Part shown: positions 1-42,247 of the stretch, piece after piece | How the letters are laid out: the number at the start of each line of letters is the position of its first letter | Numbering within the stretch: position 1 is the stretch's first letter | Source of the DNA: Alphaproteobacteria bacterium | GTDB lineage: Bacteria > Pseudomonadota > Alphaproteobacteria > Rs-D84 | NCBI GenBank assembly: GCA_017534945.1 | Contig: JAFXVB010000024.1 | Coordinates: 19,546 to 83,545, forward strand | DNA length: 64,000 nucleotides | Reading direction: 5' to 3' | The notes under the pieces: generated by a model | What the model was told of the DNA's origin: nothing | Database searches by the model: none | The model's input: the letters and a program-made list of their open reading frames with translations, nothing else | Translations under genes and position numbers: made by a program

Positions 1-2628
1 TGTAATAATTGATGTTGCGATTGTAAGTGGATGTGTCAAAGAATTCAAAATTGCCGCCAATAACATAAATGTCAAAACAGACGCCAAAATAAATGCCATA
101 CCAATTTCACTGGTTGTATCACTTTGAATTTCCGACATACCACCAAATTTTGCGCTGTATCCCGCCGCCCATTCCATTTGCGCCATTTCAGCCTCTATCT
201 TTTTTTGAACCGGGCCAATTGTTGATTTACCAATATTGATATCAATTTCGGTGACACGCGATTTATCCAAACGACTGATATTTGGTGTTGACGGCACATT
301 TTGTATTTCACCTAATTCTGCCAATGCAACCATACCACGCGGAGAATTTACAAACACACTGTTGAACATAAAGTTTGTTTTGAATGGGCGCGCAAATTCC
401 AAAACGATTGGATATTCTTTTCCATTTTCTTTGTATTTATAAGAATCATTTCCATATAACGCAGTACGCAACACCGAACCAGCATAAGAATTTTTAATTC
501 CCCACGCACTCATTTGTTCTTGGTTTGGCACAAAACGAATTTCATTGTTTGGTTTTTGTTGTGCCAATACCGCACTTTGCACTTCGGGAATATTATTTAT
601 TCGTGCGACCAATTCGTTTGCATATTTTTCACGCATTACATCATCATCGCCATAAACATTCAAAACCATGTCTGATGAAATACCACCACTGATCGCTTCG
701 CCGGCACGAATTTGAATTTCTGCATCTGGGATATTTGATAAATTTTTCAACATTTTTTGTGCTAATTTTTTATCACTTATTCCGCGTTTACTTCTATCAA
801 CCAAATTTGTTGTGATTGTGATATTTTGCAAACCACGTTCACCAATTTTTACTATGGTTGATTCAACTTCGCGATATTGGTGTAAAACATCATCTATGCT
901 TTTTGCGATTTCAGTTGATTTTTCGTATGTTGCCCCCATTGGCGCACGCACAGTCAATGTAATTTGATTCGCATCGGTTGATGGTTGGAATTCATTACCA
1001 ACAAAACTCATCAATTGCGCCGCACCAAATAATACAGCAACAGCAATCAAAACAACACGACCGGCATGCGCAAATTGATAGTCATACCAACGACGCAAAC
1101 GAGTGTGTTTTTCTTCTGTTTTTGTTTGTTTATCATCTATTACCTCACGACGATTGGTTAAACGCAAAAACTGTGCAATCATCATCGGTGTCAAAGTGAA
1201 TGAAAACAACAAAGACAATAAAGTTAAATATACAACAGTCATACCAAATTGAATCATGAACTGCCCCACAATACCACCCATAAATGCCAACGGCAAAAAC
1301 ACCACAACATTGGTTCCAACGCCCGCCAACACAGAAACCGCAACACGTTTTGTTCCGTCAATTGCTGCATTTTCAGGATTTTTACCATTGCGCATTTCTT
1401 GCAATGCGGATTCAATCAAAATAATTGCATTTGACACCAAAGTCCCCAACGCCGATGAATACGCCAATAAAGTCATCGCATTTATGGTAAAACCACTGAA
1501 ACTTACAAAGAACATACCGGCCACCATTGATGTAGGAATCACAACACCCGCAATAACAGTCGAACGCCAATTTTGAGTGAACAATAACAAAATTATAACT
1601 GTGAAAATAATACCCAAAACAATTCCATTGATTGTATCAAATGTATCGCTTTCAACCTTGGTAGAAGAATCGCTTACGATTTCCATTTGTGCATTTGGAT
1701 ACTTTGTTTGCATTTCAGCAATCAAATCTGGCATTGCTTTACGTAATGCATTTGATATTTTAATTGCATTACCGTCCGCCGCCTTTATCACAGATGCGAT
1801 AATAACATCATTTCCATTATATTTTGCACCTTTGTCTATATCACGCGCAGAATCAGTGACGGTTGCAACATCGGTCAATTTGAAATTTTGTCCTTCACTT
1901 GTCACAATTTGCAGATTTTCAATTTCATCAACACTTGCAAATTCGCCAACGAAACGAACATTTGATGAACCGGTACCACTTTCAATTTTTCCCCCAGGCA
2001 CATTTAAATTTTTATTCGCCAATGCCGATACAATATCAACAATCGTGACACCGCGCGCCGCCATTTCATCAGGCGACATTTCAATACGAATTGCACGTTT
2101 TAATCCACCAAATACATTTACATTTGCAACACCTTTTATACCGGTGATTTTGTTGGACAATGTATCGGTTGTATATTCATATAATTCACGTGAATCAGCA
2201 CCATAAATCGCGACATCAATCACAGATTGTTGTAATGGATTCAATTTTTCAACAACCGGTTGTTTCATATCTTCTGGAAATTCTGCAGATAACGCGTCCA
2301 ATTTTGATTTTACTTCTGCTGATTTATCATTTACATTTACACCCAAATTAAATTCAGCCATCACATAACCGCCATTTTCATAACTTTGAGATGTAATTTT
2401 TTTAAGCCCGGAAACTTCGGACATGGCATCTTCGGCCTTTTTCAAAATTTGCGATTCTATCTCTTGGGGGGCGGCACCCGGATATATGAAAGATGCGGTC
2501 ACATACGGAAAATCCAAAGACGGGGTACGTTCTATATTCATACCATTAAAAGAATAAAAACCCAATACGACCCAAAATAAAACAAACATCAATGTTGTAA
2601 TTGGACGACGAACAAAAAATCTTAACAT
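1..2628 (-). CDS. Efflux RND transporter permease subunit (AcrB/AcrD/AcrF-like), 3' end (C-terminus) truncated by window start
   Basis: The minus-strand frame is open from an ATG at 2626-2628 (MLRFFVRRPITTLMFVLFWVV...) through position 1 and is about 875 aa. Its 12-TM/large-periplasmic-loop architecture and composition are RND-like. The listed plus-strand ORFs 1256-2206 are antisense artefacts. It is the last gene of a MarR-TolC-adaptor-RND operon. Confidence 0.8.
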   Translation of the reverse strand, partial: MLRFFVRRPITTLMFVLFWVVLGFYSFNGMNIERTPSLDFPYVTASFIYPGAAPQEIESQILKKAEDAMSEVSGLKKITSQSYENGGYVMAEFNLGVNVNDKSAEVKSKLDALSAEFPEDMKQPVVEKLNPLQQSVIDVAIYGADSRELYEYTTDTLSNKITGIKGVANVNVFGGLKRAIRIEMSPDEMAARGVTIVDIVSALANKNLNVPGGKIESGTGSSNVRFVGEFASVDEIENLQIVTSEGQNFKLTDVATVTDSARDIDKGAKYNGNDVIIASVIKAADGNAIKISNALRKAMPDLIAEMQTKYPNAQMEIVSDSSTKVESDTFDTINGIVLGIIFTVIILLLFTQNWRSTVIAGVVIPTSMVAGMFFVSFSGFTINAMTLLAYSSALGTLVSNAIILIESALQEMRNGKNPENAAIDGTKRVAVSVLAGVGTNVVVFLPLAFMGGIVGQFMIQFGMTVVYLTLLSLLFSFTLTPMMIAQFLRLTNRREVIDDKQTKTEEKHTRLRRWYDYQFAHAGRVVLIAVAVLFGAAQLMSFVGNEFQPSTDANQITLTVRAPMGATYEKSTEIAKSIDDVLHQYREVESTIVKIGERGLQNITITTNLVDRSKRGISDKKLAQKMLKNLSNIPDAEIQIRAGEAISGGISSDMVLNVYGDDDVMREKYANELVARINNIPEVQSAVLAQQKPNNEIRFVPNQEQMSAWGIKNSYAGSVLRTALYGNDSYKYKENGKEYPIVLEFARPFKTNFMFNSVFVNSPRGMVALAELGEIQNVPSTPNISRLDKSRVTEIDINIGKSTIGPVQKKIEAEMAQMEWAAGYSAKFGGMSEIQSDTTSEIGMAFILASVLTFMLLAAILNSLTHPLTIATSIIT

Positions 2629-2633
2629 TTTAA

Positions 2634-3260
2634 TTACTCCCCTTGCTTTTCAATACGAACCCTTTCCCCTGATGATACTTTTGATAAAATCACAATATCA
2701 CCATCATGCAAACCTTGGGTAATAAGTGCAACATCGGCATCGCTGTGTGCAACAATAACCTTGCGCAATGTAGCCACACCATTTTCATACACAAAAACAT
2801 TGTCATCAACAACCGCATAAACCGGCACAAAATAACCATTGCGAGTGTATTCAACATATTGCAAACCGTTTTCTACATTTGATGTTTTAATTACATACAT
2901 ACCTGTATCCAAATTTATATTTTGCGACACAGATGTAATTTTACCGTTTCCAACCTTTTGTCCGGCACGAAACAACCCAACACGATTGCCGGTCACATAC
3001 GCTTTATTTTTTTCAACTGTTATTGGTTCATGCAAAACCCCAGAAGAATTTTGTGCCGTCATTGTTAAAACAGGCGTACCATTAATTGATATATCGCGCG
3101 AAATATTAAACACATCTTGGTTATGTTGTAATATCAACGCAACAATACGAAAACAAACCCAAAAAACAATTGCACACACAGATAAAATGTAAATCCATTT
3201 TTTTAACTGTTGTGGTTTTTTTACTTTAAAAAATTTTATTATACGTTCCATTTTATTCAT
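2634..3260 (-). CDS. Efflux periplasmic adaptor (membrane fusion protein), unusually short (208 aa)
   Basis: It has an N-terminal TM anchor followed by beta-barrel and membrane-proximal-like segments (…VILSKVSSGERVRIEK). It sits between the TolC and RND genes with 8-nt and 6-nt junctions. No alpha-helical hairpin is evident. Confidence 0.55.
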   Translation of the reverse strand: MNKMERIIKFFKVKKPQQLKKWIYILSVCAIVFWVCFRIVALILQHNQDVFNISRDISINGTPVLTMTAQNSSGVLHEPITVEKNKAYVTGNRVGLFRAGQKVGNGKITSVSQNINLDTGMYVIKTSNVENGLQYVEYTRNGYFVPVYAVVDDNVFVYENGVATLRKVIVAHSDADVALITQGLHDGDIVILSKVSSGERVRIEKQGE

Positions 3261-4587
3261 CCAATTTTTTAATTGATTCCATTGACATTAAAATTTTGTA
3301 TTTTGCATTTAACAATGCCATATCTAACTGATACAATCCGGACGCAACTTCGGCCAATTCAACCGCAGATGTTTGACCGGCACCAAATCTATCCTGGGAA
3401 AATTTGTATGCTTTTGCCGCCAAATCGCGTGCATTTTGCATGTTTTCCAAATTATCACGCAAATGATTATATTGACGGATTGCTGTGTTATATTGTTCCG
3501 TTGTCAATTTTTTTGTTTTATCCAAATCTTGACGCGCGGCTTCGGCGTTCATTACGTCAACCGTTGCATTTGCACGATTTAATCCACCGGTAAATACAGG
3601 AACCGATAAAGCCAATCCCCAATATGCCCCCTGGGATCCAGATTTTTCAAACATATGCCCAACATCGTTTCCCATTGTCATAAAATTATACGCACCAACC
3701 GCCGCCAATGTTGGATAGCCATTTGCGCGTTGTGATGAAGCCTTGGCTTCGTACATATTTACCTGTTCTTGTAAAACTTCCCATTGTGGGGTTGATGTTA
3801 ATTTCTTATCTGCGATATTTTCAAATTCACTTGGAAAATTATCAGTCAAATTTAATTCTTCATCTATATCGATTCCCGCAAAAATTTTTAACATACGGTG
3901 CGCCGTATCGCGATTAAATTCTGCATCTGATAAATTGATTTCTTTGCTTGCAATATCTGTTTCGATTTTAACCAAATTACCACGATTGGCACGACCCGTT
4001 GCCGTTAATTTAGATTTAGAAACCTTTGCATTATTCAAATCTTGTTGTGCCAATTTCACAATTTCATCAGTCATTTTCGCGGTCCAATATAAATCTGCCG
4101 CACTGTATGCAACCTCGCGTCGGGTGATTTCTTTACTGGTCTTTGACATTTTAATCGCACTGCGCGTGCTGTCCACAGCATTACCGATTTTTCCAAATGT
4201 GTAAATCGGTTGAGTAATTGACACACCCGCCATTAGTAAATTATCAGGAATTTGTAAATTTGTTAAATCGTTGCCTGTGTTTTGAGCCGCTTGGGCCAAC
4301 AACCCACCAAGTTCAGGCGGTAATTTTATACCTTGGTCACTGGTTGGATTGGTGACATCAACTAAATTCATATACGAAGCGTTTGCCGTCACATTTACCC
4401 AACGATTTGCATTGACCGCATCCAATGAAGCTTCGGCCTTTTTCACATTAGCCTCGGCCTTTTTAATATCATTTGATTCGGCAATAATTTTATTCACCGC
4501 ATCATTTAATGACAAATCCATAGCAACCGCATTATTTGCAATCAAACCACCACACAATACCGCACAAATAAATTTTAATTTACGCAT
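3253..4587 (-). CDS. TolC-family outer membrane efflux protein
   Basis: 444 aa with a signal peptide (MRKLKFICAVLCGGLIANNAVA), coiled-coil-rich, and a characteristic outer-membrane-factor composition. It lies in an operon with the adaptor and RND genes. Confidence 0.7.
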   Translation of the reverse strand: MRKLKFICAVLCGGLIANNAVAMDLSLNDAVNKIIAESNDIKKAEANVKKAEASLDAVNANRWVNVTANASYMNLVDVTNPTSDQGIKLPPELGGLLAQAAQNTGNDLTNLQIPDNLLMAGVSITQPIYTFGKIGNAVDSTRSAIKMSKTSKEITRREVAYSAADLYWTAKMTDEIVKLAQQDLNNAKVSKSKLTATGRANRGNLVKIETDIASKEINLSDAEFNRDTAHRMLKIFAGIDIDEELNLTDNFPSEFENIADKKLTSTPQWEVLQEQVNMYEAKASSQRANGYPTLAAVGAYNFMTMGNDVGHMFEKSGSQGAYWGLALSVPVFTGGLNRANATVDVMNAEAARQDLDKTKKLTTEQYNTAIRQYNHLRDNLENMQNARDLAAKAYKFSQDRFGAGQTSAVELAEVASGLYQLDMALLNAKYKILMSMESIKKLDE

Positions 4588-5029
4588 TTTGTTCCTCCAC
4601 CCGCTTTAAAATTCCATTGATATATTCAAAGCATTCCGCCAATTTGTTTTCTTCGGCCCCAGATAAATTACGGCAAAATTGTTCAATTGTATCCATGACC
4701 GCATCTTTGAATTTATTTGCAACCTTTTGCCCTTTGGACGTGACAGCATACCAAGTATTACGACGATCGTTTTCATCAACGGTGCGTACGACCAAACCTT
4801 CGGCCTCTAACTTTCTAAACATAATACACAGGTTTGGTGTTGGCATACATTGACGACGCGCAATTTCTTTTAATTTAGAACGACCCGACACATACAAATC
4901 AACCAATACCATCAATTGTTGGCGATTATAACCAACCTTTTGCGAAGGAAATTGTTGAATACGGGTCAACAAACGTTCCAAAACAACGCCATGTTCTTCT
5001 ATTAATTCTATGAATCTTTTTCTGGCCAC
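4580..5029 (-). CDS. MarR family transcriptional regulator
   Basis: 149 aa with a winged-HTH MarR pattern (…LMVLVDLYVSGRSKLKEIARRQCMPTPNLCIMFRKLEAEGLVVRTVDENDRRNTWYAVTSKG). It heads the efflux operon. Confidence 0.8.
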   Translation of the reverse strand: MARKRFIELIEEHGVVLERLLTRIQQFPSQKVGYNRQQLMVLVDLYVSGRSKLKEIARRQCMPTPNLCIMFRKLEAEGLVVRTVDENDRRNTWYAVTSKGQKVANKFKDAVMDTIEQFCRNLSGAEENKLAECFEYINGILKRVEEQNA

Positions 5030-5248
5030 AGAAAACCCCTTTGTTTAACATAAAAATCATTAAAAACTTTAACGATTATATATATTTAATTTTATTTTTC
5101 AAGTGTTATTATGCAAATTTTTTTATTTTATTACTTGCTTATAAAAAATAATATGGCACGCGATAAAACAGAATCGGTTTTTATTAAAAACATACTTGAT
5201 TGTTGCCTATATTTTTGTATGATATAACCAAATAAAAACAGGTTTGAT

Positions 5249-6041: not shown

Positions 6042-6117
6042 GCTCCCATCGTCTAGCGGTCCAGGACATCGGATTCTCATTCCGGCAACATGGGTTCGAT
6101 TCCCATTGGGAGTGCCA
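6042..6117 (+). tRNA. tRNA-Glu (anticodon CUC), CCA encoded
   Basis: A 76-nt cloverleaf. The acceptor stem is GCTCCCA/TGGGAGT, and the anticodon stem TCGGA/TCCGG carries the loop TTCTCAT (U-CUC-A). The T-arm is ATGGG-TTCGATT-CCCAT and there is a 3' GCCA. It is close to the E. coli tRNA-Glu scaffold. Confidence 0.8.
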
Positions 6118-6310: not shown

Positions 6311-6916
6311 ATGGAACCAACTTATATATCGGCATTTCCAGGAATTGGTACAACAAGAATGTTCGTTGGAAATGACGGAAATATTTATGAAGCCAGCGGA
6401 GGTAGCAGAGCATGGCGTAATAACAACCCTGGAAATTTAGAATATGGAAAATTTACTCGTGATAATGGCGCAATTGGTACAGACGGCAGATTTGCCATAT
6501 TTCCAGATATAACAACAGGTTTTAATGCTATGACCGAATTATTATCAACAAATTCGTATCAAACCTTAACTGTTGAAGGGGCAATAAACAGATATGCACC
6601 ATCAACCGAAAATAATGTTGAAAATTATTTAAAATCAATAGAACGACAAACAGGTTTTACGCGTTCAACACCAATGAACCAACTTTCAAAAGACAATTTA
6701 CTAAAACTAGCACAAGCAATGGCTAAACATGAAGGAAATATGATCGGGAAAAAACGTTTTGTTTCTAAACATGAAAAATATGTTTGGGTGACGGTTGGTG
6801 ATGATAAAGTTAGACCAGAACACGAAATACTGGACGGCGAAATTAGAACATGGTATGATACACCACATCCAGGGGAAGAATACGGATGTCGATGCCATGC
6901 AGAAAGTGTTGATTAA
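6311..6916 (+). CDS. Phage head-morphogenesis (SPP1 gp7 / Mu F)-like domain protein with uncharacterised N-terminal domain
   Basis: The C-terminus WVTVGDDKVRPEHEILDGEIRTWYDTPHPGEEYGCRCHAE matches the Phage_Mu_F signature (DxRVRxxH…LDG…P…NCRC). There is a strong RBS, aaaggag-N5-ATG. The N-terminal about 110 aa (…RAWRNNNPGNLEYG…FAIFPD…) is unassigned. Confidence 0.6.
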   Translation: MEPTYISAFPGIGTTRMFVGNDGNIYEASGGSRAWRNNNPGNLEYGKFTRDNGAIGTDGRFAIFPDITTGFNAMTELLSTNSYQTLTVEGAINRYAPSTENNVENYLKSIERQTGFTRSTPMNQLSKDNLLKLAQAMAKHEGNMIGKKRFVSKHEKYVWVTVGDDKVRPEHEILDGEIRTWYDTPHPGEEYGCRCHAESVD

Positions 6917-7394
6917 ATTTTTTATTTTATTGTTATGTATGGCCTGTTCAAGCCGGGTTGAATATACTGAAGATTTTTTTGATGGATTACCTCAGCCAGA
7001 TAAAACCGAAATTTTTGATTTGCCCGATGATTACGGAATAAAAAAGATAGATACTTTTTTCATAGATATAAATAACAACGGTAAAAATGACACTATCAAA
7101 CGTGGTCGATTTGTAACAGGCACAGCGCATTCATACACTTTTTACGATATATATTTGGACAATGGCGAATTGCTTACGCATTTAACAACCCACGAAGGTG
7201 CCGATTGCGTTTTACGCACTTATAAATTTCAAATACAACCGTTTGTAATAACAAGTGCATCAAGACCAATCGGCAAAGATTATATGGAACCAACAAAAGC
7301 AAAAATAGAAACATTTGAAATTAAAAATAATAAAATAGAATCTGTATTTAGCGAAGAATACAATCCAATTTGTGATGTTAGATATCTATTATAA
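6897..7394 (+). CDS. Small secreted/lipoprotein (possible cognate partner of the MuF-like protein)
   Basis: It starts at M35 of the listed ORF (MQKVLIKFFILLLCMACSS…), a signal peptide with a Cys lipobox-like end. It overlaps the upstream gene by 20 nt. No recognisable family. Confidence 0.45.
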   Translation: MQKVLIKFFILLLCMACSSRVEYTEDFFDGLPQPDKTEIFDLPDDYGIKKIDTFFIDINNNGKNDTIKRGRFVTGTAHSYTFYDIYLDNGELLTHLTTHEGADCVLRTYKFQIQPFVITSASRPIGKDYMEPTKAKIETFEIKNNKIESVFSEEYNPICDVRYLL

Positions 7395-19058: not shown

Positions 19059-20042
19059 TTAATTGTCAAGTATGGCTTTCAATTCCAACATATCATCGGG
19101 CAATGGGGCTTTAAAAGTCATCTGTTTACCTGTTATTGGGTGTTTTAACGACAAATATGACGCGTGCAACATTTGACCGTTGTGCGTTTTCAAAAATTCA
19201 AGCAGTTCTGGATTTTTAACACTGCCAAACCGATTGGTGCCACGTCCGTATGTCGGGTCGCATAAAACTGGAAATCCATGCGCAGATAAATGAACACGAA
19301 TTTGATGCGTTCGACCCGTCAATAAATTACAACGAAATTGGGAAATCCCAAAACGCGACCAAACATCGATGACGGTCACCTCTGTGGTGGCGGGTTTGCC
19401 CCCGGACTTTACCATTGTCATTTTTTGTCGATTACGCGATGAACGCGCAATATTGCCGGTAATTGTTGCACTTTCCCAATTCGGCACCCCCCAAACAAAC
19501 GCATCGTATTTACGGGTTAAATCATGATTCGAAAAGGTTTTTACCAATTCGCGATATGCCGCATCACTTTTGGCAAAAATCATAACGCCGGATGTATCTT
19601 TGTCCAAACGATGAACAACCCCGGGACGCACATCGCCACCAATCGCAGACAACGATGTATAACACAATAAATTTTGAACAAGTGTCCCTGTTTTATTTCC
19701 AGCCGATGGATACATCACAACACCGCGTGGTTTGTTTATCACAATAATATCTTCGTCTTGGTATAAAATATCTAAATCAAAATCGCATGATACATTATCC
19801 GCCGCCGCCGCGTTTTTTGGGGAATCAGGTACCAACACAATATACATTTCGCCACCACGCACTTTATCGGCAAATTTAACCGGCGCACCGCCACGCGACA
19901 CAGTGAATTTTTGGATTTCACTGCGCGAAAATTCAGGCATCTTTGTGGCTAAAAATTTATCAAGTCGCATTCCTGCATCTGCATCAACAACAATAAATTC
20001 GCGTTGCATAAATATTCCTATTTCTTTCCAAAATCCGCCCAA
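19059..20042 (-). CDS. rluD: 23S rRNA pseudouridine synthase, RluA/RluD family (S4 domain + catalytic domain)
   Basis: It has the HRLDKDTSGVMIFAK catalytic motif and an N-terminal S4-like region. The likely true start is MQREFIVV at 20008. Confidence 0.85.
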   Translation of the reverse strand: MGGFWKEIGIFMQREFIVVDADAGMRLDKFLATKMPEFSRSEIQKFTVSRGGAPVKFADKVRGGEMYIVLVPDSPKNAAAADNVSCDFDLDILYQDEDIIVINKPRGVVMYPSAGNKTGTLVQNLLCYTSLSAIGGDVRPGVVHRLDKDTSGVMIFAKSDAAYRELVKTFSNHDLTRKYDAFVWGVPNWESATITGNIARSSRNRQKMTMVKSGGKPATTEVTVIDVWSRFGISQFRCNLLTGRTHQIRVHLSAHGFPVLCDPTYGRGTNRFGSVKNPELLEFLKTHNGQMLHASYLSLKHPITGKQMTFKAPLPDDMLELKAILDN

Positions 20043-20506
20043 TCGGGGCCACGTTTACATTTCGATATATCAATTTCAAATTCATAATCGCCGGTCGCAG
20101 GACATGTAAGCAGACCGGTTGTTTCGGCTTGCTCTGCATCTTGGGGAGCATTGCGATATGCAAACTTTATTTCCTTTGGCGCCGCAATACAAACAAGACG
20201 CAAATGTCCAACCATTTCACCCATCGGTGATATCCAAACACGAACACTGTCGGCTTCGCCATAGCAAGGAAATGCGTCCAGGTAATATAAAATTAAACCA
20301 TTTTTCAATAATGTGCGGTCTGTGCCACGAAAATGTCCGGTGTATTGCGATAATGGTAATCCTGTCACGCCATGCCAATCAACAGTCGTGGAAAACAAAC
20401 TGACCCGCGGCCCAGGTAATGGTGCCGGTGGTGTCGGTGTGGTGGTTGTATCTGCGAACGCAGAACAACAAAACAATACAGATAATAACGCGATTAATTT
20501 TCTCAT
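20018..20506 (-). CDS. Secreted hypothetical protein (signal peptide, Thr/Pro-rich linker, Cys-containing domain)
   Basis: MRKLIALLSVLFCCSAFA|DTTTTPTPPAPLPGP… It is the last gene of the pilin-like array, before rluD. Confidence 0.5.
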   Translation of the reverse strand: MRKLIALLSVLFCCSAFADTTTTPTPPAPLPGPRVSLFSTTVDWHGVTGLPLSQYTGHFRGTDRTLLKNGLILYYLDAFPCYGEADSVRVWISPMGEMVGHLRLVCIAAPKEIKFAYRNAPQDAEQAETTGLLTCPATGDYEFEIDISKCKRGPDWADFGKK

Positions 20507-21036
20507 TTTGCGAAATCCCCCAATTTAACCACAATCTTTTTAACGCCAGCCGATGGGGCACGTAAAGTATAAACAAACCCGGCACGCGCACCCGCATCCA
20601 ATAATGTGACCGGTGGCGCAAACTGTTCCGGTGCATTTATTTGTTTGCCATCGCCATCGTATGTCATGATAAACAGGTTCGGCGCACCGTAAATTTCAGG
20701 ACTGCGATTTTCAATTATACCCGATACGATAAAGTGATTTACACCATTTCCGTCCGGCGCCAATGTCGTTTTAACAATCGATGCAGTAAGTGGCGCGTTC
20801 GTCACAGAATTTTTACGATAATGTGTTATTGCAACAACAGAAAAAATTATCGCAGACAGCAAAGCACACAACGCCGCTAAAAATACAAAAAATTTATTTT
20901 TACGATTTGGTGTTTTTACCATAAATGTATGACCGCAAATCGCGCACTTTACGGGCATCGCCGGAATTTTATTCAACGTATATTCTGTTCTACAAAAATC
21001 GCATTTTATTTTCATATCACATCCTTTATAGCACAA
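20503..21036 (-). CDS. Zinc-ribbon (MJ0042-type CxxC…CxxC) + TM + DUF3426-like domain protein
   Basis: The N-terminus MKIKCDFCRTEYTLNKIPAMPVKCAICGHTF carries two CxxC pairs. It is followed by a TM helix (FFVFLAALCALLSAIIFSVVAI) and a roughly 100-aa beta-rich C-domain. This architecture is typical of DUF3426 proteins. Confidence 0.55.
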   Translation of the reverse strand: MCYKGCDMKIKCDFCRTEYTLNKIPAMPVKCAICGHTFMVKTPNRKNKFFVFLAALCALLSAIIFSVVAITHYRKNSVTNAPLTASIVKTTLAPDGNGVNHFIVSGIIENRSPEIYGAPNLFIMTYDGDGKQINAPEQFAPPVTLLDAGARAGFVYTLRAPSAGVKKIVVKLGDFAK

Positions 21037-21037
21037 A

Positions 21038-22354
21038 TTATTGCAATTTCAACAAACGATATTTTGCACGAACATCGTTTGCGATATCGTTTAAAGCATT
21101 TTGAAAATCTGCAACCGTCGCATTTGCATTGGCCGCGATTGCACCAAAGCGCCGTCCGGCAAACGTTGTTGAATCAAATTCTTTTTTCGGCAAGAAACTT
21201 ATCATACGATTAAGGTCGCCTAAATACAGGTCTGAAAACACAGCCGACGAAGTGGACGCGTCCCAATAATATCCCGGATTTGTTGGGTCTGTAATTTTAC
21301 TGGAAACAATTAAACGCGGTGTGATTGACCCGGCATATCCAACCGTCACATGTGTTGCATTAACACTGCCGTATGTCATTTTAACAGAACCGTTCACAGT
21401 TAAAATTACAGGTTTCCTTTCCGGATTATCTATACTTAAATTTGGTAATGTCAGGTTTGTCACCAATAAATCGTTCGTTGTAAACGATGAAAATTTTCCT
21501 GTATCCGTCAAAGATAAACGACCCGTAATTTCAAGATTTCTGGAATCAGATGTAAGCGACCCAGACACAGTTGCACTTTTTGTATAAAATTCACTGTCAA
21601 CTGTTGTGCGATTATTAAAAATTAAATTACGCGTATTCAGTTTTCCTATTGTTAAAAATTCATCAAAAGAACCCGAAACAAACGCCATTTTACGAACATT
21701 TAAAACATCATGCGACCCAAGGTTTAATGATGAACGCATTGTTGCATCATCTGGGTTTTGGGACGGCACGCGCCACAAATATAACGCATTATCACGATTT
21801 ATTGTCGTGGTTGTGACAATTCCATTTTTTGCATCTATACCAATATCAGCAACAGATGCACGCCATGTTCCGTTTGCACCATACGCTTTATTACCATCAA
21901 CAAAACCAACATGACCATTTGCCAAGTTCAATATTTGATGTGTACGAAACGGTGATATTTTTTCAGATTCATAAACCACCACACCTTGCAAAGTTGATTG
22001 TCCATTAAAATCTTTGGATTTCAAAACGCGTAATTGATATTTGGTATCTGGGGCATTTATGATTCCGTCGCCCAACCCATATTTTGCCAATTCACCAATT
22101 TCAACACGCACAATATTGCGACCCAATGGTTTTAATAATGTTTCACGATTATCAATTATATACCTTTCCAAAGCCCCTTGGATTTCGGTCATTTGTTTTG
22201 TGATTTCGATATTTTCACGACGTTCAATTGCACCGCGTTGATATTTGAAAACAAACGGAATAATAAGCATTGCCAAAGATACACTAAGCAGTAATTCAAC
22301 CAACATATTACCACTTTGATTTTTTTTCGATAAAGATTTATTTAATATTTTCAT
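21038..22354 (-). CDS. Large type IV pilin-like protein (prepilin-type N-terminus, ~420-aa C-terminal domain), paralog 3
   Basis: The N-terminus is …KKNQSG|NMLVELLLSVSLAMLIIPFV (G-1, E+5, hydrophobic alpha1). The start ATG overlaps the upstream stop (ATGA) at 22351-22354. The LNLGSHDVLNV motif is shared with paralog 2. Confidence 0.6.
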   Translation of the reverse strand: MKILNKSLSKKNQSGNMLVELLLSVSLAMLIIPFVFKYQRGAIERRENIEITKQMTEIQGALERYIIDNRETLLKPLGRNIVRVEIGELAKYGLGDGIINAPDTKYQLRVLKSKDFNGQSTLQGVVVYESEKISPFRTHQILNLANGHVGFVDGNKAYGANGTWRASVADIGIDAKNGIVTTTTINRDNALYLWRVPSQNPDDATMRSSLNLGSHDVLNVRKMAFVSGSFDEFLTIGKLNTRNLIFNNRTTVDSEFYTKSATVSGSLTSDSRNLEITGRLSLTDTGKFSSFTTNDLLVTNLTLPNLSIDNPERKPVILTVNGSVKMTYGSVNATHVTVGYAGSITPRLIVSSKITDPTNPGYYWDASTSSAVFSDLYLGDLNRMISFLPKKEFDSTTFAGRRFGAIAANANATVADFQNALNDIANDVRAKYRLLKLQ

Positions 22355-23607
22355 TGTTCGTCTATGCTTTTTTTTGTTTGCCAATCAGCCGCCATAATCG
22401 CACTGAATTCTTGTTTATCCGGTGTTGCGGATATTGTTGTCCGTCCCAATTTTAATGATGAAAAATTCGGTAATTGATTTGATGGAAATGACCAATTTCC
22501 AATTTTTAATGGCGCAGTTCGCGACATCAATAATTCACCCGATACGGTCAAACCAAAATCACCATAAAACACCATATCCCCGGCCGTCACATATGGCGTA
22601 TACACAGAATTAGAATTTAAAACTGTAAACGCACTGATTGTTCTATTGCTGGACGATTTTAATTTGAACATATTTCCAATTCTTACGGAATTTTTAACGG
22701 TTGCACGATCTGTGATTACCGTTCCAGAATTACTGAAACTGTTTCCGTTCAGGTTGTTTGCGGTAATATTACGAAAACCGCTGATATCGCCCAGCGCACG
22801 AATTGTATCAATGTGCGCATCGGCACCTTGGACATTTGCCCCAGATGAAAAATAAATTGCATCTGCGTTTACATCATCAGCCACCAGAAATGTTGTATTG
22901 ATATTTTTAACATCCACAGAATTAACATCCAAAGTTCCAACATTTAATAAATCTTTGCCGCCCATATTCAAATTACGCAACATAGCGTTCAAGTTGTTTT
23001 TATTTTCTTGCATGTCATCAACATTGGTATTGTCTTTGGATTTATTAATTATTGTATCTGTGGCGCCACGATGCAGAAAATTCATCCTGTCCATTGTTGC
23101 AAAATTATGCGACACACGATATATCAAATTTCCCGGTTTGAATTCTGGCCCCGATACAGCCCATGTATTTCCATACGCAACACCGTCATCACCAACAATC
23201 GCGGCATTACCGCCGATTTGACGCGCAATTTGATTCGTCCTTAGCAAAGAAGACGATATATCAAACCCCAGATAAACATCGGTAATTGTTGTTCCACGAA
23301 ATTGTCTTTTATCAATAAAACCACTGGATATAATTGGCGAAATTTCTTTTAAGTCGTCCGCCGTCAATTGTATTTCTGTGTCACCATCCCAATTTTCTTG
23401 GTGTGTACGAACAAAGTTTAATACACTGTCTTGTAAATCAACAATTTTTTGTGCCACAGAAATATTTTCAATATCATTGTATGTGCGTGTAATTTGTTTA
23501 TACATAAATGGTGCCGCAACCGCAATAATAGATATTGCCAACACAACCTCTATCAATGATGCGCCACGCGACATGTCGTTAAAAATTTTCGTTTTATATA
23601 CAGTCAC
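22351..23607 (-). CDS. Large type IV pilin-like protein, paralog 2
   Basis: MSRG|ASLIEVVLAISIIAVAAPF is a canonical class-III signal (G-1, E+5). 418 aa, with an N/S/T/G-rich beta-type C-domain containing LNMGGKDLLNV. Confidence 0.65.
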   Translation of the reverse strand: MTVYKTKIFNDMSRGASLIEVVLAISIIAVAAPFMYKQITRTYNDIENISVAQKIVDLQDSVLNFVRTHQENWDGDTEIQLTADDLKEISPIISSGFIDKRQFRGTTITDVYLGFDISSSLLRTNQIARQIGGNAAIVGDDGVAYGNTWAVSGPEFKPGNLIYRVSHNFATMDRMNFLHRGATDTIINKSKDNTNVDDMQENKNNLNAMLRNLNMGGKDLLNVGTLDVNSVDVKNINTTFLVADDVNADAIYFSSGANVQGADAHIDTIRALGDISGFRNITANNLNGNSFSNSGTVITDRATVKNSVRIGNMFKLKSSSNRTISAFTVLNSNSVYTPYVTAGDMVFYGDFGLTVSGELLMSRTAPLKIGNWSFPSNQLPNFSSLKLGRTTISATPDKQEFSAIMAADWQTKKSIDEQ

Positions 23608-24949
23608 TTTTTCCCGCCATTAAACATTGTTTTGCATTTATTCTTTGTTCAAGACGCGCCCAAAACATATACTCGCACAATATATGTTGCGCCAATGATG
23701 AAGAATTATATGTTTCACCCAAACTTGCAATCATATCACGACAATTCATTACTGCATCGTCATCTTTCTTTGGATTTTTTAAAATTGCGAAACTATCGTT
23801 GCTGATGCCTGATACAGACACATCTGGTAATACTGTTGTACTGGCCGGGCGAATATCAATAATCACAGAACCATTATCACCCGCATCCAATGCTTTGGAT
23901 GTTTGGTCGCGCAATGTAATATGCGATGCAATGATTGAACCGGTGGAAATACCACTGGATGTATTATAAGAAACACTGGTACCATCGATATACACATCTT
24001 GACCACTGCTGACATTAAGGTACGAACCAACCTCTAATGTTTCTACACTTAACGCGATATGTTCTGTTTCCAAATTACCACGCACATCCCATGTAACCGG
24101 CCCAGTAAACCCAGTATGTCCCGCCGTCAAATCAAACGAATAAACCGATGCGGAATTCGATTCAAAATTTCCTGTGGAACCGTATTCTGCAACCGTTTTT
24201 CCAAACACATTGTTTGCCTTTAACGAACCACGCGTTAATGCCAATGCCGACCCACCAGATTTAGATTGAAAAATACTTTTGTTCGAATTTAATATTCCTA
24301 TTTTATTTTTAGAACCACGATCTGCTTCATTACCAAATATATCCAAAGTATCAAATGCCGCCGTTTCTGCAACCAAGTTATGTCCAACAACTGTATTCGT
24401 ATTTTCTATTACAAAATTATTCATTTCCAAATCGGTTAAAAATGCAGAATTATTTATATCCGGTTCATTACGACGAACAACATCTTGGTATAATGTATTT
24501 AACGGTACACCAACCATTAAACCGGTTGTGGTGCGTTCCGCATAAAAACCGATTCTGCGAACCATTTCTGCAATTTGAATACCGGTTAAATTACCACCAT
24601 CAATCATCAAAGAACCACCAACACCATTTTCATCTTTATCAACAACCAAGAAAATATTTTGTCCAAATGCCGTTTGTGGAATATATCCCAACGGCAATCC
24701 ATACGGTTCCAAAATATCTGTAAAATCTTTGCCACGAATCGTTGTTTTTCCGTATGGCAATGCATCTACATTTTCACGAATAAATATGCGCGCCGCAGTT
24801 TGTGCAACATCAACCTGGTGCACAGAAGAATACATTTTCGCATCCATGTCATTTGTAACCAAACGATTTGTTAATGTTGGCATAAACACAAACAGCAACG
24901 ATACCGCCAATAATGCCTGTAATAAAAAATTTCCGCGTTGTTGATGCAA
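23594..24949 (-). CDS. Large type IV pilin-like protein, paralog 1 (E5 replaced by Q)
   Basis: MHQQRG|NFLLQALLAVSLLFVF… 451 aa with a G/S/T/N-rich C-domain and a C-terminal Cys cluster (…NCRDM…LCEYMF…CLMAGKSDCI). Confidence 0.55.
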   Translation of the reverse strand: MHQQRGNFLLQALLAVSLLFVFMPTLTNRLVTNDMDAKMYSSVHQVDVAQTAARIFIRENVDALPYGKTTIRGKDFTDILEPYGLPLGYIPQTAFGQNIFLVVDKDENGVGGSLMIDGGNLTGIQIAEMVRRIGFYAERTTTGLMVGVPLNTLYQDVVRRNEPDINNSAFLTDLEMNNFVIENTNTVVGHNLVAETAAFDTLDIFGNEADRGSKNKIGILNSNKSIFQSKSGGSALALTRGSLKANNVFGKTVAEYGSTGNFESNSASVYSFDLTAGHTGFTGPVTWDVRGNLETEHIALSVETLEVGSYLNVSSGQDVYIDGTSVSYNTSSGISTGSIIASHITLRDQTSKALDAGDNGSVIIDIRPASTTVLPDVSVSGISNDSFAILKNPKKDDDAVMNCRDMIASLGETYNSSSLAQHILCEYMFWARLEQRINAKQCLMAGKSDCI

Positions 24950-25118
24950 TACGCGCCCCCCTATGCAAAAATAAATTTCTCTTTATAAGTATTAGGTTAG
25001 CAATTGAAAAAATATATTGCAATCAGTTTTAAGATGATTTATATTATGTTCGTTGTTGGTTGATTTTTAACAATTATTTCAACCATGTATTCCAAATAAA
25101 AATTATAAAAGAAAAGAT

Positions 25119-27084: not shown

Positions 27085-27543
27085 ATGCAAAGTGAATATG
27101 GACGTTCTTTGATTGAAATGTTGGGTGTATTGACCATTGGTGCGGTTATGACTGCGGCGGCATATGGAACATATAATATGTTGCGCACGCGTCAGGTTCG
27201 CAATATGGCGGTAAGTGAAATGGAACAAATCGTTCGCAACACAAAAATATTATTGGAAATGCGTGGCGATTACAGTGCTGTATCCATTGATTATTTGATT
27301 AAATCGGGGGCTATTACAAATTCAAATGCGCCAATGGGTGGCGATGATTGGTCAATCACATCATCGGTTGATGGAAAAACATTTTCTATCAATTTAACTA
27401 ATTTAACCCAAGGCGATTGTGCTTTTTTAGCAACCAAAAAATTAGATTGGGCAAAATCAAAAACCATAAATAAAATTGAAAACAGCGGGGCCGAGGCTTG
27501 TATTGCACCGGCACGTAATTATGTTTCAATAAACATTGAATAA
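27085..27543 (+). CDS. Type IV (type IVa-like) major pilin
   Basis: The RBS aagggggg-N6-ATG is followed by MQSEYG|RSLIEMLGVLTIGAVMTAAAYG (short leader, G-1, E+5). 152 aa, with a C-terminal Cys pair (DCAFLA…EACIAP), the D-region disulfide. Confidence 0.7.
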   Translation: MQSEYGRSLIEMLGVLTIGAVMTAAAYGTYNMLRTRQVRNMAVSEMEQIVRNTKILLEMRGDYSAVSIDYLIKSGAITNSNAPMGGDDWSITSSVDGKTFSINLTNLTQGDCAFLATKKLDWAKSKTINKIENSGAEACIAPARNYVSINIE

Positions 27544-27545
27544 AC

Positions 27546-28214
27546 ATGAAATTGAAATTATTTCTTTTATGTATGTGTTTAGTGGGCTGTGTGCAATATA
27601 CCAGTCCAGACCACGCAACATGGGATTATTATTTGAACGGCGCAAGTTTTATGGATATGACAGAAACCGCAAAAATCGCAAAGCGGCCGGTGTATCTGGG
27701 CAGTGGGGGCAAATTATTAACAACCCCGGATAATCAAAAAAAATTAGAATATGGTGATAAAATCGCAAATGACAATGCGGTTGGCGTTGCATATATGTCG
27801 AATATGGAACGCGATTTATATGACGCTTTACGCACATCTGGGGTATCTGTGGAACGCGCCGGCACAGATGTTGTTGTGATTTTGGTACGCGGTGCAATTA
27901 TGAAACCAGATATTGCAGAAATATCCAGCAATGGCGATGATATTTTATCAACTGTTGCCAGAATTTTAAGAAAATATGATTCTACATATTTGGAAATTGC
28001 GGGGTATACCGATTCAATGCGTGATGCGGCGGCGGCAAAACGCATGTCTTTGGATATGGCGCAACGCGTTGGTGTGTTTTTATCACGTAAAGAAATTAAA
28101 CCCGCACGCATGTTTATTGTTGGACGCGGGTCTGCACGACCAATTGCCGCCCAGGACAGTATTGGGCGACTTACCAATCGCAGAATCGAAATTCGTATCG
28201 CACCGGCAAGATAA
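27546..28214 (+). CDS. OmpA/MotB-domain lipoprotein
   Basis: It has the lipobox LLCMCLVGC and a C-terminal OmpA-like peptidoglycan-binding domain (…LEIAGYTDS…NRRIEIRIAP). It starts 2 nt after the pilin stop. Confidence 0.7.
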   Translation: MKLKLFLLCMCLVGCVQYTSPDHATWDYYLNGASFMDMTETAKIAKRPVYLGSGGKLLTTPDNQKKLEYGDKIANDNAVGVAYMSNMERDLYDALRTSGVSVERAGTDVVVILVRGAIMKPDIAEISSNGDDILSTVARILRKYDSTYLEIAGYTDSMRDAAAAKRMSLDMAQRVGVFLSRKEIKPARMFIVGRGSARPIAAQDSIGRLTNRRIEIRIAPAR

Positions 28215-28256
28215 CAGAGTTCAAAGTGCAAAGTGCAAAGTTCAAAGTGCAATTAA
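28215..28256. repeat. Half-copy of the heptamer repeat element (gttcaaagtgcaaagtgcaaagttcaaagtgcaattaa)
   Basis: Six tandem T(T/G)CAAAG units lie immediately after the OmpA-lipoprotein stop. Confidence 0.55.
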
Positions 28257-28339
28257 AGAAAAATATTCCCTTTTATTTTCAAATTTTTGTTGTTATAGTT
28301 CAATTAACCAACGGAACAATTAACAAAAAGGAAGGTATT

Positions 28340-28999
28340 ATGGTAAAAACAAACACACAAAATATAACAATTAAAAATTACAAAAAAACCGGTATTATTG
28401 CGGCAATCGTTTTGGTTGTTGCTTGCCTGGGCATTTGGGCGGTTGCATCAATGCGGCACGAGGTCACAGTGAACGAAGCAATTGCAGAAGTTTCAAACGA
28501 TGCGGCATCGGGTGCTGATATGCGTATGGCGGTTATTCGTATGGACGCCGTTCAAATGGAAGCAAATGCTTTGAAAGATTTGCGCACACAAAAAGAAAAT
28601 TATGAAAAAAAATTGCGTGATGAATTGACAGCAGAACAAAAATCTTTGGAAAAAGAAAAAACAGAGATTGAAAAATCCCAAGATGTTTTGTCCCAAGAAG
28701 CGTTGCAACGTCGTGTCGTTGATTATCAACAACGGGTTGCAAAATTGCAACGGAATTTGACAGAACGCGCACAAAGCGTCGAAGAATCTTATCAACGCGC
28801 GTTGGCGGATATCCAAGATAAACACCTGGATCCGGTTATCGAAGGTATAATTGCGAAAAAGAATTTGTCTTTGGTTATTGATGGTCGTTTTGCTCGTACC
28901 GGAAAAGATGTTGCAAATTTGGATATCACAGACGAAGTAATAAAGGCTTTGAATAAAAAAGTGTCGTCTGTAAAAATGGCAACACCAAAAGGTTTTTAA
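28340..28999 (+). CDS. OmpH/Skp-family periplasmic chaperone-like protein
   Basis: The RBS aaggaagg precedes an ATG at 28340. It has an N-terminal anchor, a long coiled-coil and a C-terminal …DITDEVIKALNKK, typical of OmpH. Confidence 0.55.
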   Translation: MVKTNTQNITIKNYKKTGIIAAIVLVVACLGIWAVASMRHEVTVNEAIAEVSNDAASGADMRMAVIRMDAVQMEANALKDLRTQKENYEKKLRDELTAEQKSLEKEKTEIEKSQDVLSQEALQRRVVDYQQRVAKLQRNLTERAQSVEESYQRALADIQDKHLDPVIEGIIAKKNLSLVIDGRFARTGKDVANLDITDEVIKALNKKVSSVKMATPKGF

Positions 29000-41537: not shown

Positions 41538-42190
41538 AACATCACCCGCGATATGGCGATTGGTGCCGCCAATTCTGCGCGCAGAATTGTTTTGCCCAAC
41601 GACATGCCACGCGCACCATTTTTATCCAATATTTCAAATTCTGGGTTTGAAAATCCACCCTCGGGTCCAACCAAAATATTTTTTACATTTTTATATTCGT
41701 GTGGCATATCGACACCGTATGCAGCACGTTCATCTGCGAACACTAAATCTGCGAAAGGCAAATCATTAAACTTTATTGGTGATGTGATATCCGGCACAGA
41801 ATTACGATTTGATTGTTCGGCGGCCTCTATCACTATTTTTTTCATACGCCCCCAGTTTATGTGATTAGCAACCGTTCGTTCTGTTATCACAGGAACAAAT
41901 TTCGCAACACCCATTTGTGTCGCCATATTTAACATGTCGTCCAATCGTTTTATCGGTGCAAAATACAAAACAATATCACCAGTTGGGTCGGTATGCGATG
42001 TTTTATCACCAATTGTCATCGTTTTACCATCATCGTTTAATACCGCCGTATATTCATTGCCATCACCAAAAACCAAACAATCTTTGCGCCGCATAACATG
42101 CGATAAATAGTGTGCCACAGATTTATCAACCGGTATTATATTACCAGATTCTATATTGGCGCCGATAAAAATTCTTGGTATATTTTTCAT
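41534..42190 (-). CDS. rsmE: 16S rRNA (uracil1498-N3)-methyltransferase
   Basis: The C-terminus is …ILVGPEGGFSNPEFEILDKNGARGMSLGKTILRAELAAPIAISRVML. Confidence 0.8.
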   Translation of the reverse strand: MKNIPRIFIGANIESGNIIPVDKSVAHYLSHVMRRKDCLVFGDGNEYTAVLNDDGKTMTIGDKTSHTDPTGDIVLYFAPIKRLDDMLNMATQMGVAKFVPVITERTVANHINWGRMKKIVIEAAEQSNRNSVPDITSPIKFNDLPFADLVFADERAAYGVDMPHEYKNVKNILVGPEGGFSNPEFEILDKNGARGMSLGKTILRAELAAPIAISRVML

Positions 42191-42247
42191 AAATATTTTT
42201 ATTTCGTGATTTATCTCTGGACAGTTTTATGGTATAATAATAACACC

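Follow-up and report, generated by a model that had tools for sequence, protein, structure and literature searches.

The locus considered here, five genes in a 64-kb stretch of DNA (the window) from Candidatus Enterousia (order Rs-D84; gut Alphaproteobacteria), raises the question of what three large proteins with prepilin-type N-termini are doing in such a host, whose genomes are <1 Mb, without respiration or the standard transporters, and whose way of life has been suggested to depend on a partner (PMC12306168). All five ORFs lie where a first-pass annotation, made from the letters of the DNA alone, had placed them (Table 1). The first three, here called A, B and C, probably belong to the PilV family and serve a type IVb pilus that is encoded on the chromosome in scattered parts; most likely they act together. 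The overlap between A and B is 14 nt, that between the last two genes 4 nt, and the stop of B and start of C share the ATGA noted earlier. Downstream are rluD and then an ORF for a 1296-aa Cys-rich protein. Synteny in related genomes was examined, as had been proposed for follow-up: the operon, between dnaX and rluD on the chromosome, and its neighbourhood are kept in every one of the 80 species-level genomes inspected (185 were found; locus-level counts below refer to 85 loci). Identical loci in public MAGs carry no annotation beyond ‘hypothetical protein’. Elsewhere in the window a conserved chromosomal VirD4-like coupling protein is encoded (42110-44530).

Table 1 Pilin-like genes and companion genes in the 64-kb window.
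Feature	Position	Strand	Description
Five-gene operon	20018-24949	minus	overlapping, co-directional genes; first three products have prepilin-type N-termini, 418-451 aa
A	24949-23594	minus	451 aa, TTG start; PilV-like type IVb minor pilin
B	23607-22351	minus	418 aa; PilV-like minor pilin
C	22354-21038	minus	438 aa from ATG at 22354; PilV-like, nearest PilV of the three
Zinc-ribbon membrane protein	21015-20503 (or from 21036)	minus	170 aa
Signal-peptide protein	20506-20018	minus	162 aa; last operon-specific gene
Small PilS-like type IV pilin	27085..27543	plus	152 aa; presumed major subunit

The prepilin-type N-termini reported in the first-pass annotation are not due to chance: the 64 kb contains no more than four ORFs with one (A, B, C and the small pilin), and leader, Gly-1 and hydrophobic N-terminus are kept among the 120 orthologues listed for each of A, B and C. 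B has a conserved 15-aa leader (MTVYKTKIFNDMSRG/ASLIEVVLAISII, i.e. MTVYKTKIFNDMSRG/ASLIE; slash, predicted cleavage site), as does C (MKILNKSLSKKNQSG/NMLVELLLSVSL, i.e. MKILNKSLSKKNQSG/NMLVE), read from the ATG chosen by public annotation and orthologues; the longest ORF for C (22384-21038, 448 aa) has a TTG start at 22384. A has a short leader (MHQQRG/NFLLQALLAVSL), with Gln replacing Glu at +5. The expected Gly-1/Glu+5 register thus holds in orthologues for Gly-1 in all three and for Glu+5 in B and C, while Gln is invariant among the Enterousia A orthologues listed. PilK and GspK are known exceptions without Glu+5, and Gln+5 would suggest an apical position like theirs (PMC13533445); PilV of a Pantoea plasmid (GNMLLQ), with Gln at the same position as A, is another prepilin without Glu+5. 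Gln+5 is not a fixed feature of paralogue A, however, because A orthologues in the distant lineages L173 and L174 carry Glu.

Homology to PilV was clearest for C, which matched Pfam Shufflon_N (E 1.7e-5; 24.9 bits, slightly below the gathering score of 27.5) and, by tblastn against plasmids, 30 records, all on annotated pilV genes (best E 5e-9, residues 11-280). Shufflon_N proteins made up 17 of the 49 sampled matches to a C-family profile, with none from rival families, and every full-length match had a leader followed by Gly and a hydrophobic helix. A and B gave no direct family match in Pfam (N_methyl in B, E 0.013) and no plasmid tblastn match, and B reached no better than E 0.079 against GspI in NCBIfam. 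When hhalign was used with an alignment of 11 sequences, all verified Shufflon_N (PF04917), as reference, all three matched PilV: C with a probability of 99.7% (E 5e-27), B with 99.0% (E 2.5e-18, 206 columns) and A with 95.8% (E 7e-9, 193 columns). A, B and C are also mutually homologous (98% probability for B against C), so the duplication proposed earlier for B and C in fact includes A. From these comparisons, the three are taken to be anciently duplicated PilV family members, all mutually paralogous. One-to-one A-B-C triplets, with order kept, occur in the more distant lineages L171, L173 and L174.

The PilV match spans the N-terminal 200-250 residues of each protein (~25% identity), and the previously noted motif common to B (LNMGGKDLLNV) and C (LNLGSHDVLNV) corresponds, as LNxGxxDxxN, to ‘IDMNGNDINAAG’ in annotated Pantoea PilV. 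The last 160-200 residues matched nothing, and the C-terminal halves cannot be aligned with each other; their N+S+T+G content is 36-38%, vs 23% for nine housekeeping proteins encoded in the same 64 kb, in line with the richness described before. Four Cys near the C-terminus of A (C403, C425, C442, C450) are invariant in the orthologue alignment. Conservation is uniform along A, B and C, the C-terminal halves being as conserved as the N-terminal ones with no hypervariable C-terminus, a pattern unlike that of adhesins under diversifying selection. Structure prediction, also suggested at first pass, was informative for A, where the AF2 model has an N-domain of pLDDT 75-89 with a pilin fold (long N-terminal α-helix on an antiparallel β-sheet), a low-confidence middle part and C. 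difficile minor pilin PilW as top Foldseek match; the model of C was unusable (pLDDT 46).

The closest known system is PilV of IncI1/IncI2 plasmids (R64, R721, TP114; PF04917), a minor pilin/adhesin of type IVb thin pili. Shared features are the prepilin leader with Gly-1, the homologous N-terminal region including an L(N/D)MGxxDIxN motif, size (414-475 aa in PilV vs 418-451 aa here) and partnership with a PilS-like pilin, the presumed major subunit, as well as, in relatives, PilO, PilP, a PilQ-type ATPase and PilR. The size range of 120-330 aa given for minor pilins in the first-pass annotation was wrong: annotated Pantoea plasmid PilV has 462 aa and that of TP114 345 aa plus 69-113 aa (PMC9045228). 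Likewise, the architecture had looked unrecognisable because it was compared with type IVa, T2SS, Tad and Msh loci while type IVb (R64/IncI thin pilus) loci were left out, and the match to PilV/Shufflon_N does away with the new-family claim, which by its own terms was to yield to a match with a known minor-pilin family. The PilV family and the R64/IncI-type type IVb pilus are already known and this is not a new kind of machine; what is new is three fixed, individually conserved PilV paralogues in one chromosomal operon, apart from the assembly genes and lacking a shufflon, in a genome of <1 Mb. PilV systems have one such gene rather than three. Plasmid and ICE pil operons (pilL-pilV) carry it in end position beside the peptidase gene pilU, whereas the genes here lie among chromosomal housekeeping genes, and, unlike in R64 pil operons, A-B-C is joined by the genes of the zinc-ribbon membrane protein and the small exported one.

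Two other groups invite comparison. TcpB (V. cholerae TCP) and CofB (ETEC CFA/III) are large type IVb minor pilins (~420-520 aa) whose homotrimers make up the tip and start pilus assembly; A, B and C resemble them in size and in having a pilin domain followed by β-rich domains, and a tip role would be expected by analogy. No sequence similarity to either was detected, and in those systems a single minor pilin gene lies within the pilus operon (PMC13533445), whereas here three genes lie away from the machinery. GspI/J/K of T2SS and PilI/J/K or FimU-PilVWX of type IVa pili are likewise several minor pilins encoded side by side with translational coupling, with one member lacking Glu+5 (A in Enterousia, but not its distant orthologues) and with the same principle of a heteromeric complex at initiation or at the tip. 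Members of those sets, GspK apart, are small, and they are unrelated in sequence to A, B and C, which are mutually paralogous.

The small pilin, whose gene is flanked by dnaX and a gene for an OmpA-family lipoprotein, has the N-terminus MQSEYG/RSLIEMLGVLTIGAV and two C-terminal Cys. It scored just under the gathering score for Pfam PilS (PF08805; E 2.7e-4, 21.4 bits vs 22), matched N_methyl (E 1.4e-3) and gave weak tblastn matches limited to plasmid ‘type 4 pilus major pilin’ genes; it is present at the equivalent position in 78/85 loci. The earlier proposal that A, B and C are pilin-like minor subunits of a filament built from this separate pilin is supported and is the most likely one. As also noted before, pilB/C/D/Q-type genes are absent from the window, and none were found within 10 kb past either end. 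The proposed search for assembly genes elsewhere succeeded in part. In one Enterousia MAG (L070) the pilin cluster is immediately adjoined by genes for a T2SSE ATPase, PAP_PilO (PF06864) and PilP (TIGR03021), and ~60-80 related metagenome contigs contain a conserved operon, lpxK-lpxC-lipoprotein-PilO-PilP-ATPase-GspF/PilR; in relatives the assembly genes lie next to lpxC and gyrB. A single 128-kb contig of a close relative bears both this assembly operon and the A-B-C operon (loci L110 and L170). The assembly operon is known from relatives of the window's genome, the closest with 78% identity in A. An A24 prepilin peptidase was not found in the window, its 10-kb extensions or the fetched loci (~160 loci), nor a secretin in the fetched loci, where tblastn with Pantoea plasmid proteins also gave no PilN-type secretin, PilL/PilM, transglycosylase PilT or peptidase PilU. 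The system would consist of a PilS-like major pilin by dnaX, a divergent operon of PilV-like proteins and a PilO-PilP-ATPase-PilR operon elsewhere.

In IncI plasmids, PilV C-termini are switched by a shufflon. Only short, chance-level repeats, and no sfx inverted repeats, were found in 19900-25100, and no recombinase (Rci) gene within the 64-kb window; there is therefore no shufflon at the locus and no C-terminal switching. A, B and C are most likely not interchangeable variants like the alternative C-termini made by a shufflon, but a fixed set of subunits, none of them redundant, that form the tip of a cell-contact pilus or initiate it. They are conserved one by one, keep the order A-B-C in distant lineages and are encoded by translationally coupled genes, so joint action is most likely, possibly in a 1:1:1 tip complex. 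The precursors would be inserted in the inner membrane and cleaved by a prepilin peptidase after the conserved Gly; the mature N-terminal helices would then enable A, B and C to initiate the filament or sit on its end, a role that PilV, TcpB and CofB have in other type IVb pili, and the N/S/T/G-rich C-terminal halves would be shown at the tip, contacting another cell or a host surface.

A different reading of the same proteins is that A, B and C are alternative adhesins, each capping its own pili (e.g. as homotrimers like CofB/TcpB) with no heteromeric complex, giving three hard-wired receptor specificities instead of a shufflon. PilV diversity in IncI plasmids does serve to offer alternative C-terminal adhesin domains (PMC9045228), the solved type IVb tips are homotrimers of one minor pilin (PMC13533445), and the lack of alignment among the C-terminal halves would fit. 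For alternative adhesins, gain, loss and variation would be expected, whereas all three genes are retained in fixed order in every species inspected and in distant lineages, with C-terminal halves no less conserved than N-terminal ones. Translational coupling also speaks against this reading, as do the leader length and +5 residue of A, which differ from those of B and C and suggest distinct positions in the filament; on balance we consider it unlikely.

That the system is instead a secretion device, a T2SS-like short pseudopilus or TcpF-style pilus-dependent export with A, B and C as the tip of the pseudopilus, seems very unlikely. Either the 162-aa protein with its signal peptide or the Cys-rich 1296-aa protein nearby would serve as cargo, exported proteins being encoded directly downstream in a conserved arrangement, and there is precedent in type IVb systems, since TcpF of V. 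cholerae and CofJ of ETEC are secreted through binding the minor-pilin tip. GspE (TIGR02533, E 3e-53) also outranks PilB as best curated match for the ATPase, but the ATPase does not discriminate between pilus and T2SS because the GspE, PilB and related scores are all far under the equivalog cut-offs. The specific markers found, PilS, PilV/Shufflon_N, PAP_PilO and PilP (TIGR03021), point to R64-type thin pili and not to a T2SS, and no GspC/D/L/M-type genes were seen. Least credible is that the N-termini are ordinary uncleaved signal anchors of membrane-tethered periplasmic proteins with no link to a filament. The missing peptidase and secretin in the fetched loci would agree with this, but Gly-1 is invariant, leader lengths are conserved with Glu or Gln at +5, homology to PilV runs 200 residues past the helix, A has a pilin fold and the lineage also has a PilS-like pilin and PilO/P/Q/R genes.

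The preferred reading, of PilV-family subunits acting together, may be taken further, although we propose this extension only tentatively: A, B and C could form an obligate 1:1:1 heterotrimeric tip/initiation complex, its paralogues apart since before the Rs-D84 radiation, in a pilus that is the main device for seizing partners. By analogy, such a complex might be the heteromeric descendant of a homotrimeric TcpB/CofB-type cap. If so, the pilus might work with the VirD4-like coupling protein, as IncI thin pili serve type IV secretion; PilV adhesins choose recipient cells for the IncI2 plasmid TP114 (PMC9045228).

The zinc-ribbon membrane protein crosses the membrane with a single helix; its C4 zinc ribbon is cytoplasmic and its β-rich domain of ~100 aa periplasmic. 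Of its first-pass description as DUF3426-like, the zinc ribbon stands, being of MJ0042 type (TIGR02098, 23.7 bits, cut-off 20.9; E 2.8e-5), while DUF3426 itself does not (no Pfam match at E≤1). The 162-aa protein has no family match in Pfam or NCBIfam and, against PDB, gave weak matches to ankyrin-repeat (DARPin) chains, no stretch being significant alone; it has a Sec-type signal peptide (…SAFA/D), a variable Thr/Pro-rich linker and a Cys-containing core conserved in 82 orthologues. In the zinc-ribbon protein, the CxxC...CxxC and periplasmic motifs are conserved in 82 orthologues. Both genes are present in 85/85 loci; in Enterousia the zinc-ribbon gene always comes after C, and it also follows the C orthologue in L171.

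A, B and C, the three large prepilin-type proteins encoded on the minus strand, are, on sequence comparison, type IVb minor pilins that belong distantly to the PilV family, and the locus is a domesticated chromosomal form of PilV with three fixed paralogues, not a new class. On conjugative plasmids and islands, where adhesins of the PilV type have been described, a shufflon diversifies a single gene. Classical PilV is encoded in a plasmid pil operon and has a shufflon-switched C-terminus, whereas A, B and C are chromosomal and lack such a terminus; no shufflon-type repeats or recombinase were found.

The five minus-strand ORFs from A to S162 (a signal-peptide protein) are densely packed over 24949-20018, with a 14-nt overlap of the A and B genes, an ATGA combining the B stop with the C start, and a 4-nt overlap of the zinc-ribbon and S162 genes, junctions that show translational coupling. 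An operon of prepilin-type genes at 20018-24949 had been proposed in the first-pass annotation, correctly, as ORFs, junctions, N-termini and composition were all found as described. Promoter and terminator scans gave nothing beyond shuffled expectation, with a single promoter-like site upstream of A. The small ORF that separates dnaX from the divergently oriented A operon is conserved (also in relative loci L001 and L003) and encodes a protein with a basic N-terminus and an acidic Ala/Glu-rich tail, without family match.

Features of the PilV-like operon and other loci of the window
Feature	Size	Coordinates	Strand	Remarks
tRNA-Glu		6042-6117		
Phage_Mu_F-domain protein		6311-7394	plus	PF04233, E 1.4e-9; adjoins tRNA-Glu
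Giant ORF	1296 aa	15133-19023	minus	secreted, very Cys-rich; directly 3' of rluD
rluD		from 20006	minus	downstream of S162, then giant ORF
S162	162 aa	20506-20018	minus	Sec-type signal peptide
Zinc-ribbon protein	170/177 aa	end 20503	minus	N-terminal CxxC...CxxC zinc ribbon, one transmembrane helix
C	438 aa (448 aa from upstream TTG)	ATG at 22354, end 21038	minus	ORF
B	418 aa	23607-22351	minus	ORF, GTG start
A	451 aa	24949-23594	minus	ORF
Promoter-like site		25070-25043		upstream of A
Small ORF	103-113 aa	25119-25460	plus	between A operon and dnaX
Small pilin	152 aa	27085-27543	plus	prepilin-type N-terminus
OmpA-family (YiaD-like) lipoprotein		27546-28214	plus	peptidoglycan-binding; starts 3 nt past pilin stop
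OmpH/Skp		28226-28999	plus	after OmpA-family lipoprotein gene
VirD4/TraG-type coupling protein	806 aa	42110-44530	plus	PF02534 E 9e-54, TraG-D_C, TrwB

Each of A, B and C starts with a short hydrophilic leader, then Gly and ~20 hydrophobic residues, and the small pilin is the only other ORF in the 64 kb with a prepilin-type N-terminus. These signals are conserved in the 120 orthologues listed for each protein. The C leader is variable (~15 aa) and followed by G|(N/S)MLVELLLSV, while the whole B leader is kept (MTV(Y/F)KTKIF..SRG|AS(L/M)(I/L)EV), which validates the GTG start. In A the leader is 5-6 aa long and is followed by G|NFLLQALLA; its +5 residue is Gln instead of Glu, recalling apical PilK/GspK subunits (PMC13533445) and the annotated PilV of a Pantoea plasmid pil operon. 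A GspK-like ‘apical subunit’ reading of this Gln was downgraded and the residue given little weight, since the A orthologues of two distant lineages (L173 and L174) carry Glu at +5. N+S+T+G make up 36-38% of the C-terminal halves of A, B and C versus 23% of housekeeping proteins in the window; A has four invariant Cys within its last 50 residues, and B and C have none.

Assignment to PilV starts from C, which matches Shufflon_N (PF04917, the PilV constant region) in Pfam at E 1.7e-5 (24.9 bits, just under the gathering score of 27.5). When C was compared with 72,556 plasmids by tblastn, 30 records matched, all of them falling in genes annotated as pilV (‘shufflon system plasmid conjugative transfer pilus tip adhesin PilV’; best E 5e-9, ~25% identity across residues 11-280); the same search with A and with B gave no matches. 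A C-family profile recovered just 297 clusters among 1.84 billion representative proteins, with a prepilin signal at the start of every full-length match, and in a sample of 49 matches 17 were bona fide Shufflon_N proteins (best E 1e-105), with no competing family. Alignment by hhalign to 11 verified Shufflon_N proteins covered ~190-220 columns for each family, giving 99.7% probability for C (E 5e-27), 99.0% for B (E 2.5e-18) and 95.8% for A (E 7e-9). These alignments extend well beyond the hydrophobic helix, up to the motif LNMGGKDLLNV (B) or LNLGSHDVLNV (C), which corresponds to ‘IDMNGNDINAAG’ in the Pantoea PilV, and the three families are also mutually homologous (98, 96.6 and 91%). No globular domain of the PilV family has been solved, and phmmer of C against PDB returned noise only (PenA, E 0.14). 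The AF2 model of A, confident across residues 10-150 (pLDDT 75-89), predicts a type IVb pilin fold; that of C, from 36 orthologues, was too poor for use in a fold search (pLDDT 46).

The earlier reading of A, B and C as giant, unrecognised pilins is corrected by these matches, and their size is within the range of the PilV family: the Pantoea PilV has 462 aa, TP114 PilV combines 345 constant with 69-113 variable residues (PMC9045228), and the C-family profile also recovers prepilins of 900-1236 aa. The latter (P0449, P0450, P0459, P0464 and P0470-P0508 from the representative search; positions 2056-5235 of locus L172) have the form leader…GSMMVEALAMLGLITMVTP…, share PilV-like N-terminal 230-300 residues and, unlike A, B and C, are truly giant pilins of PilV type. 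A phage tail Collar domain (PF07484) is present in two Shufflon_N proteins.

Hundreds of public homologues exist for each of A, B and C, all named ones coming from uncultured gut Alphaproteobacteria and annotated ‘hypothetical protein’. When one genome per species was scanned, relatives of C turned up in at least 185 species-level genomes; the best 80 are without exception gut MAGs that bear the label Alphaproteobacteria or Candidatus Enterousia. Synteny, which the first-pass annotation had singled out for checking, is identical in all 80: OmpA-pilin-dnaX, then the divergent A-B-C-zinc-ribbon-S162-rluD-giant ORF. Within Enterousia, A, B and C are each evenly conserved along their whole length. 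Triplets are also present in three more distant lineages, amid housekeeping genes (EF-P, ksgA, recO): an A fragment, 443 aa and 609 aa (an enlarged C orthologue) followed by the zinc ribbon in L171 (3-4115), and 488-479-431 aa in L173 (374-4587) and 469-455-489 aa in L174 (7220-11470), both without zinc-ribbon and S162 genes. Each member is closest to the one of A, B and C that occupies its position, which makes the triplication old and its order fixed. The zinc-ribbon protein and S162 are confined to the Enterousia-like clade, and L171 has the zinc-ribbon gene. Weak matches of S162 to DARPins were taken as chance or ankyrin-like composition. The giant ORF accompanies the pilin operon in 77/85 loci, at 40-75% identity, and gave noise only against Pfam and NCBIfam.

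The small pilin resembles Pfam PilS (R64-type major pilin; E 2.7e-4, a little under the gathering score) and matches plasmid ‘type 4 pilus major pilin’ genes only weakly. Its pairing with the OmpA-family lipoprotein gene is kept in 78/85 loci, and this lipoprotein could possibly help anchor the putative pilus machinery. The absence of assembly genes from the window, noted earlier, was borne out by family searches, and the 10 kb past either end contain only housekeeping genes. The assembly system was disclosed by a rearrangement in one Enterousia MAG (L070; JAZSAG010000045.1, 1-4133), where genes for PAP_PilO (PF06864, E 8e-8), PilP (TIGR03021, E 4e-7) and a T2SSE ATPase (E 1e-53) come immediately after the dnaX-pilin-OmpA-OmpH cluster rather than after lpxC, as they do in other genomes. 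With this ATPase as query, 80 metagenome loci with ATPases 74-92% identical were recovered, encoding PilO (66/80), PilP (70/80) and PilR (60/80). The two read whole (L169 and L097) have the order lpxK-lpxC-small lipoprotein-PilO-PilP-ATPase-GspF/PilR, then gyrB. One 128-kb contig (Ga0265299_10000089) carries both the assembly operon (L110) and, ~90 kb away, the A-B-C operon (L170; A 78% identical to that of the window). PilO/P/Q/R genes are thus present in relatives, and the lineage therefore has R64-like type IVb machinery with genes dispersed among housekeeping genes. No member of the ATPase's 90% clusters could be assigned to a contig from the species of the window, the assembly operon being known from relatives. 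Searching the fetched loci by tblastn with PilL, M, N, T and U from the Pantoea plasmid revealed neither a secretin nor a prepilin peptidase; the 132-aa lipoprotein encoded upstream of PilO could not be recognised as a PilM, and the 189-aa gene product after PilR is not a membrane peptidase.

By analogy with PilV, TcpB and CofB, the A, B and C precursors would be cut after Gly by an A24 peptidase and would initiate or cap a filament built of the mature pilin (146 aa), with their N/S/T/G-rich C-terminal halves exposed for contact with another cell or surface. In known type IVb systems a single minor pilin forms a homotrimer (PMC13533445), in contrast to the three distinct paralogues here. As each is separately conserved and positionally fixed, A, B and C probably act as a set, possibly as a 1:1:1 tip. 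They could instead be homotrimeric adhesins used as alternatives to one another, replacing a shufflon in hard-wired form, but this is unlikely, fitting poorly with the universal retention, even conservation and gene coupling of all three. A role mainly as a secretion pseudopilus is less probable still, as the specific markers found belong to thin pili, and that the N-termini are plain signal anchors is very improbable, being contradicted by both homology and fold.

Genome size in Candidatus Enterousia (order Rs-D84) is ~0.75-1.0 Mb, and the TCA cycle, respiratory chains and standard transporters are all missing; a Patescibacteria-like dependence on partners has been proposed, via surface structures of unknown kind, with type IV pili mentioned solely for lineage UBA9783 and not for Rs-D84 (PMC12306168). 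No description of pili in Rs-D84 was found in the literature searched. In a gut lineage with reduced genomes, for which a cell-contact device is being sought, the locus exposes a conserved, previously unremarked putative type IVb pilus that has three PilV paralogues, all fixed. Its three large predicted tip subunits make it a concrete candidate contact device for Rs-D84, and it offers a natural experiment for asking whether type IVb tips may be heteromeric.

Elsewhere in the window, the VirD4/TraG-type type IV secretion coupling protein gene lies among housekeeping genes (rsmE, pseudouridine synthase, LpoB), with no other T4SS genes in the window, and is conserved at the same place in relative loci L001 and L002 (13/85 loci reach that position). 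The Phage_Mu_F gene is replaced by a GH108 lysozyme-like gene on a further contig from the window's species (L086), and this tRNA-Glu-adjacent site looks like a small variable phage-derived slot.
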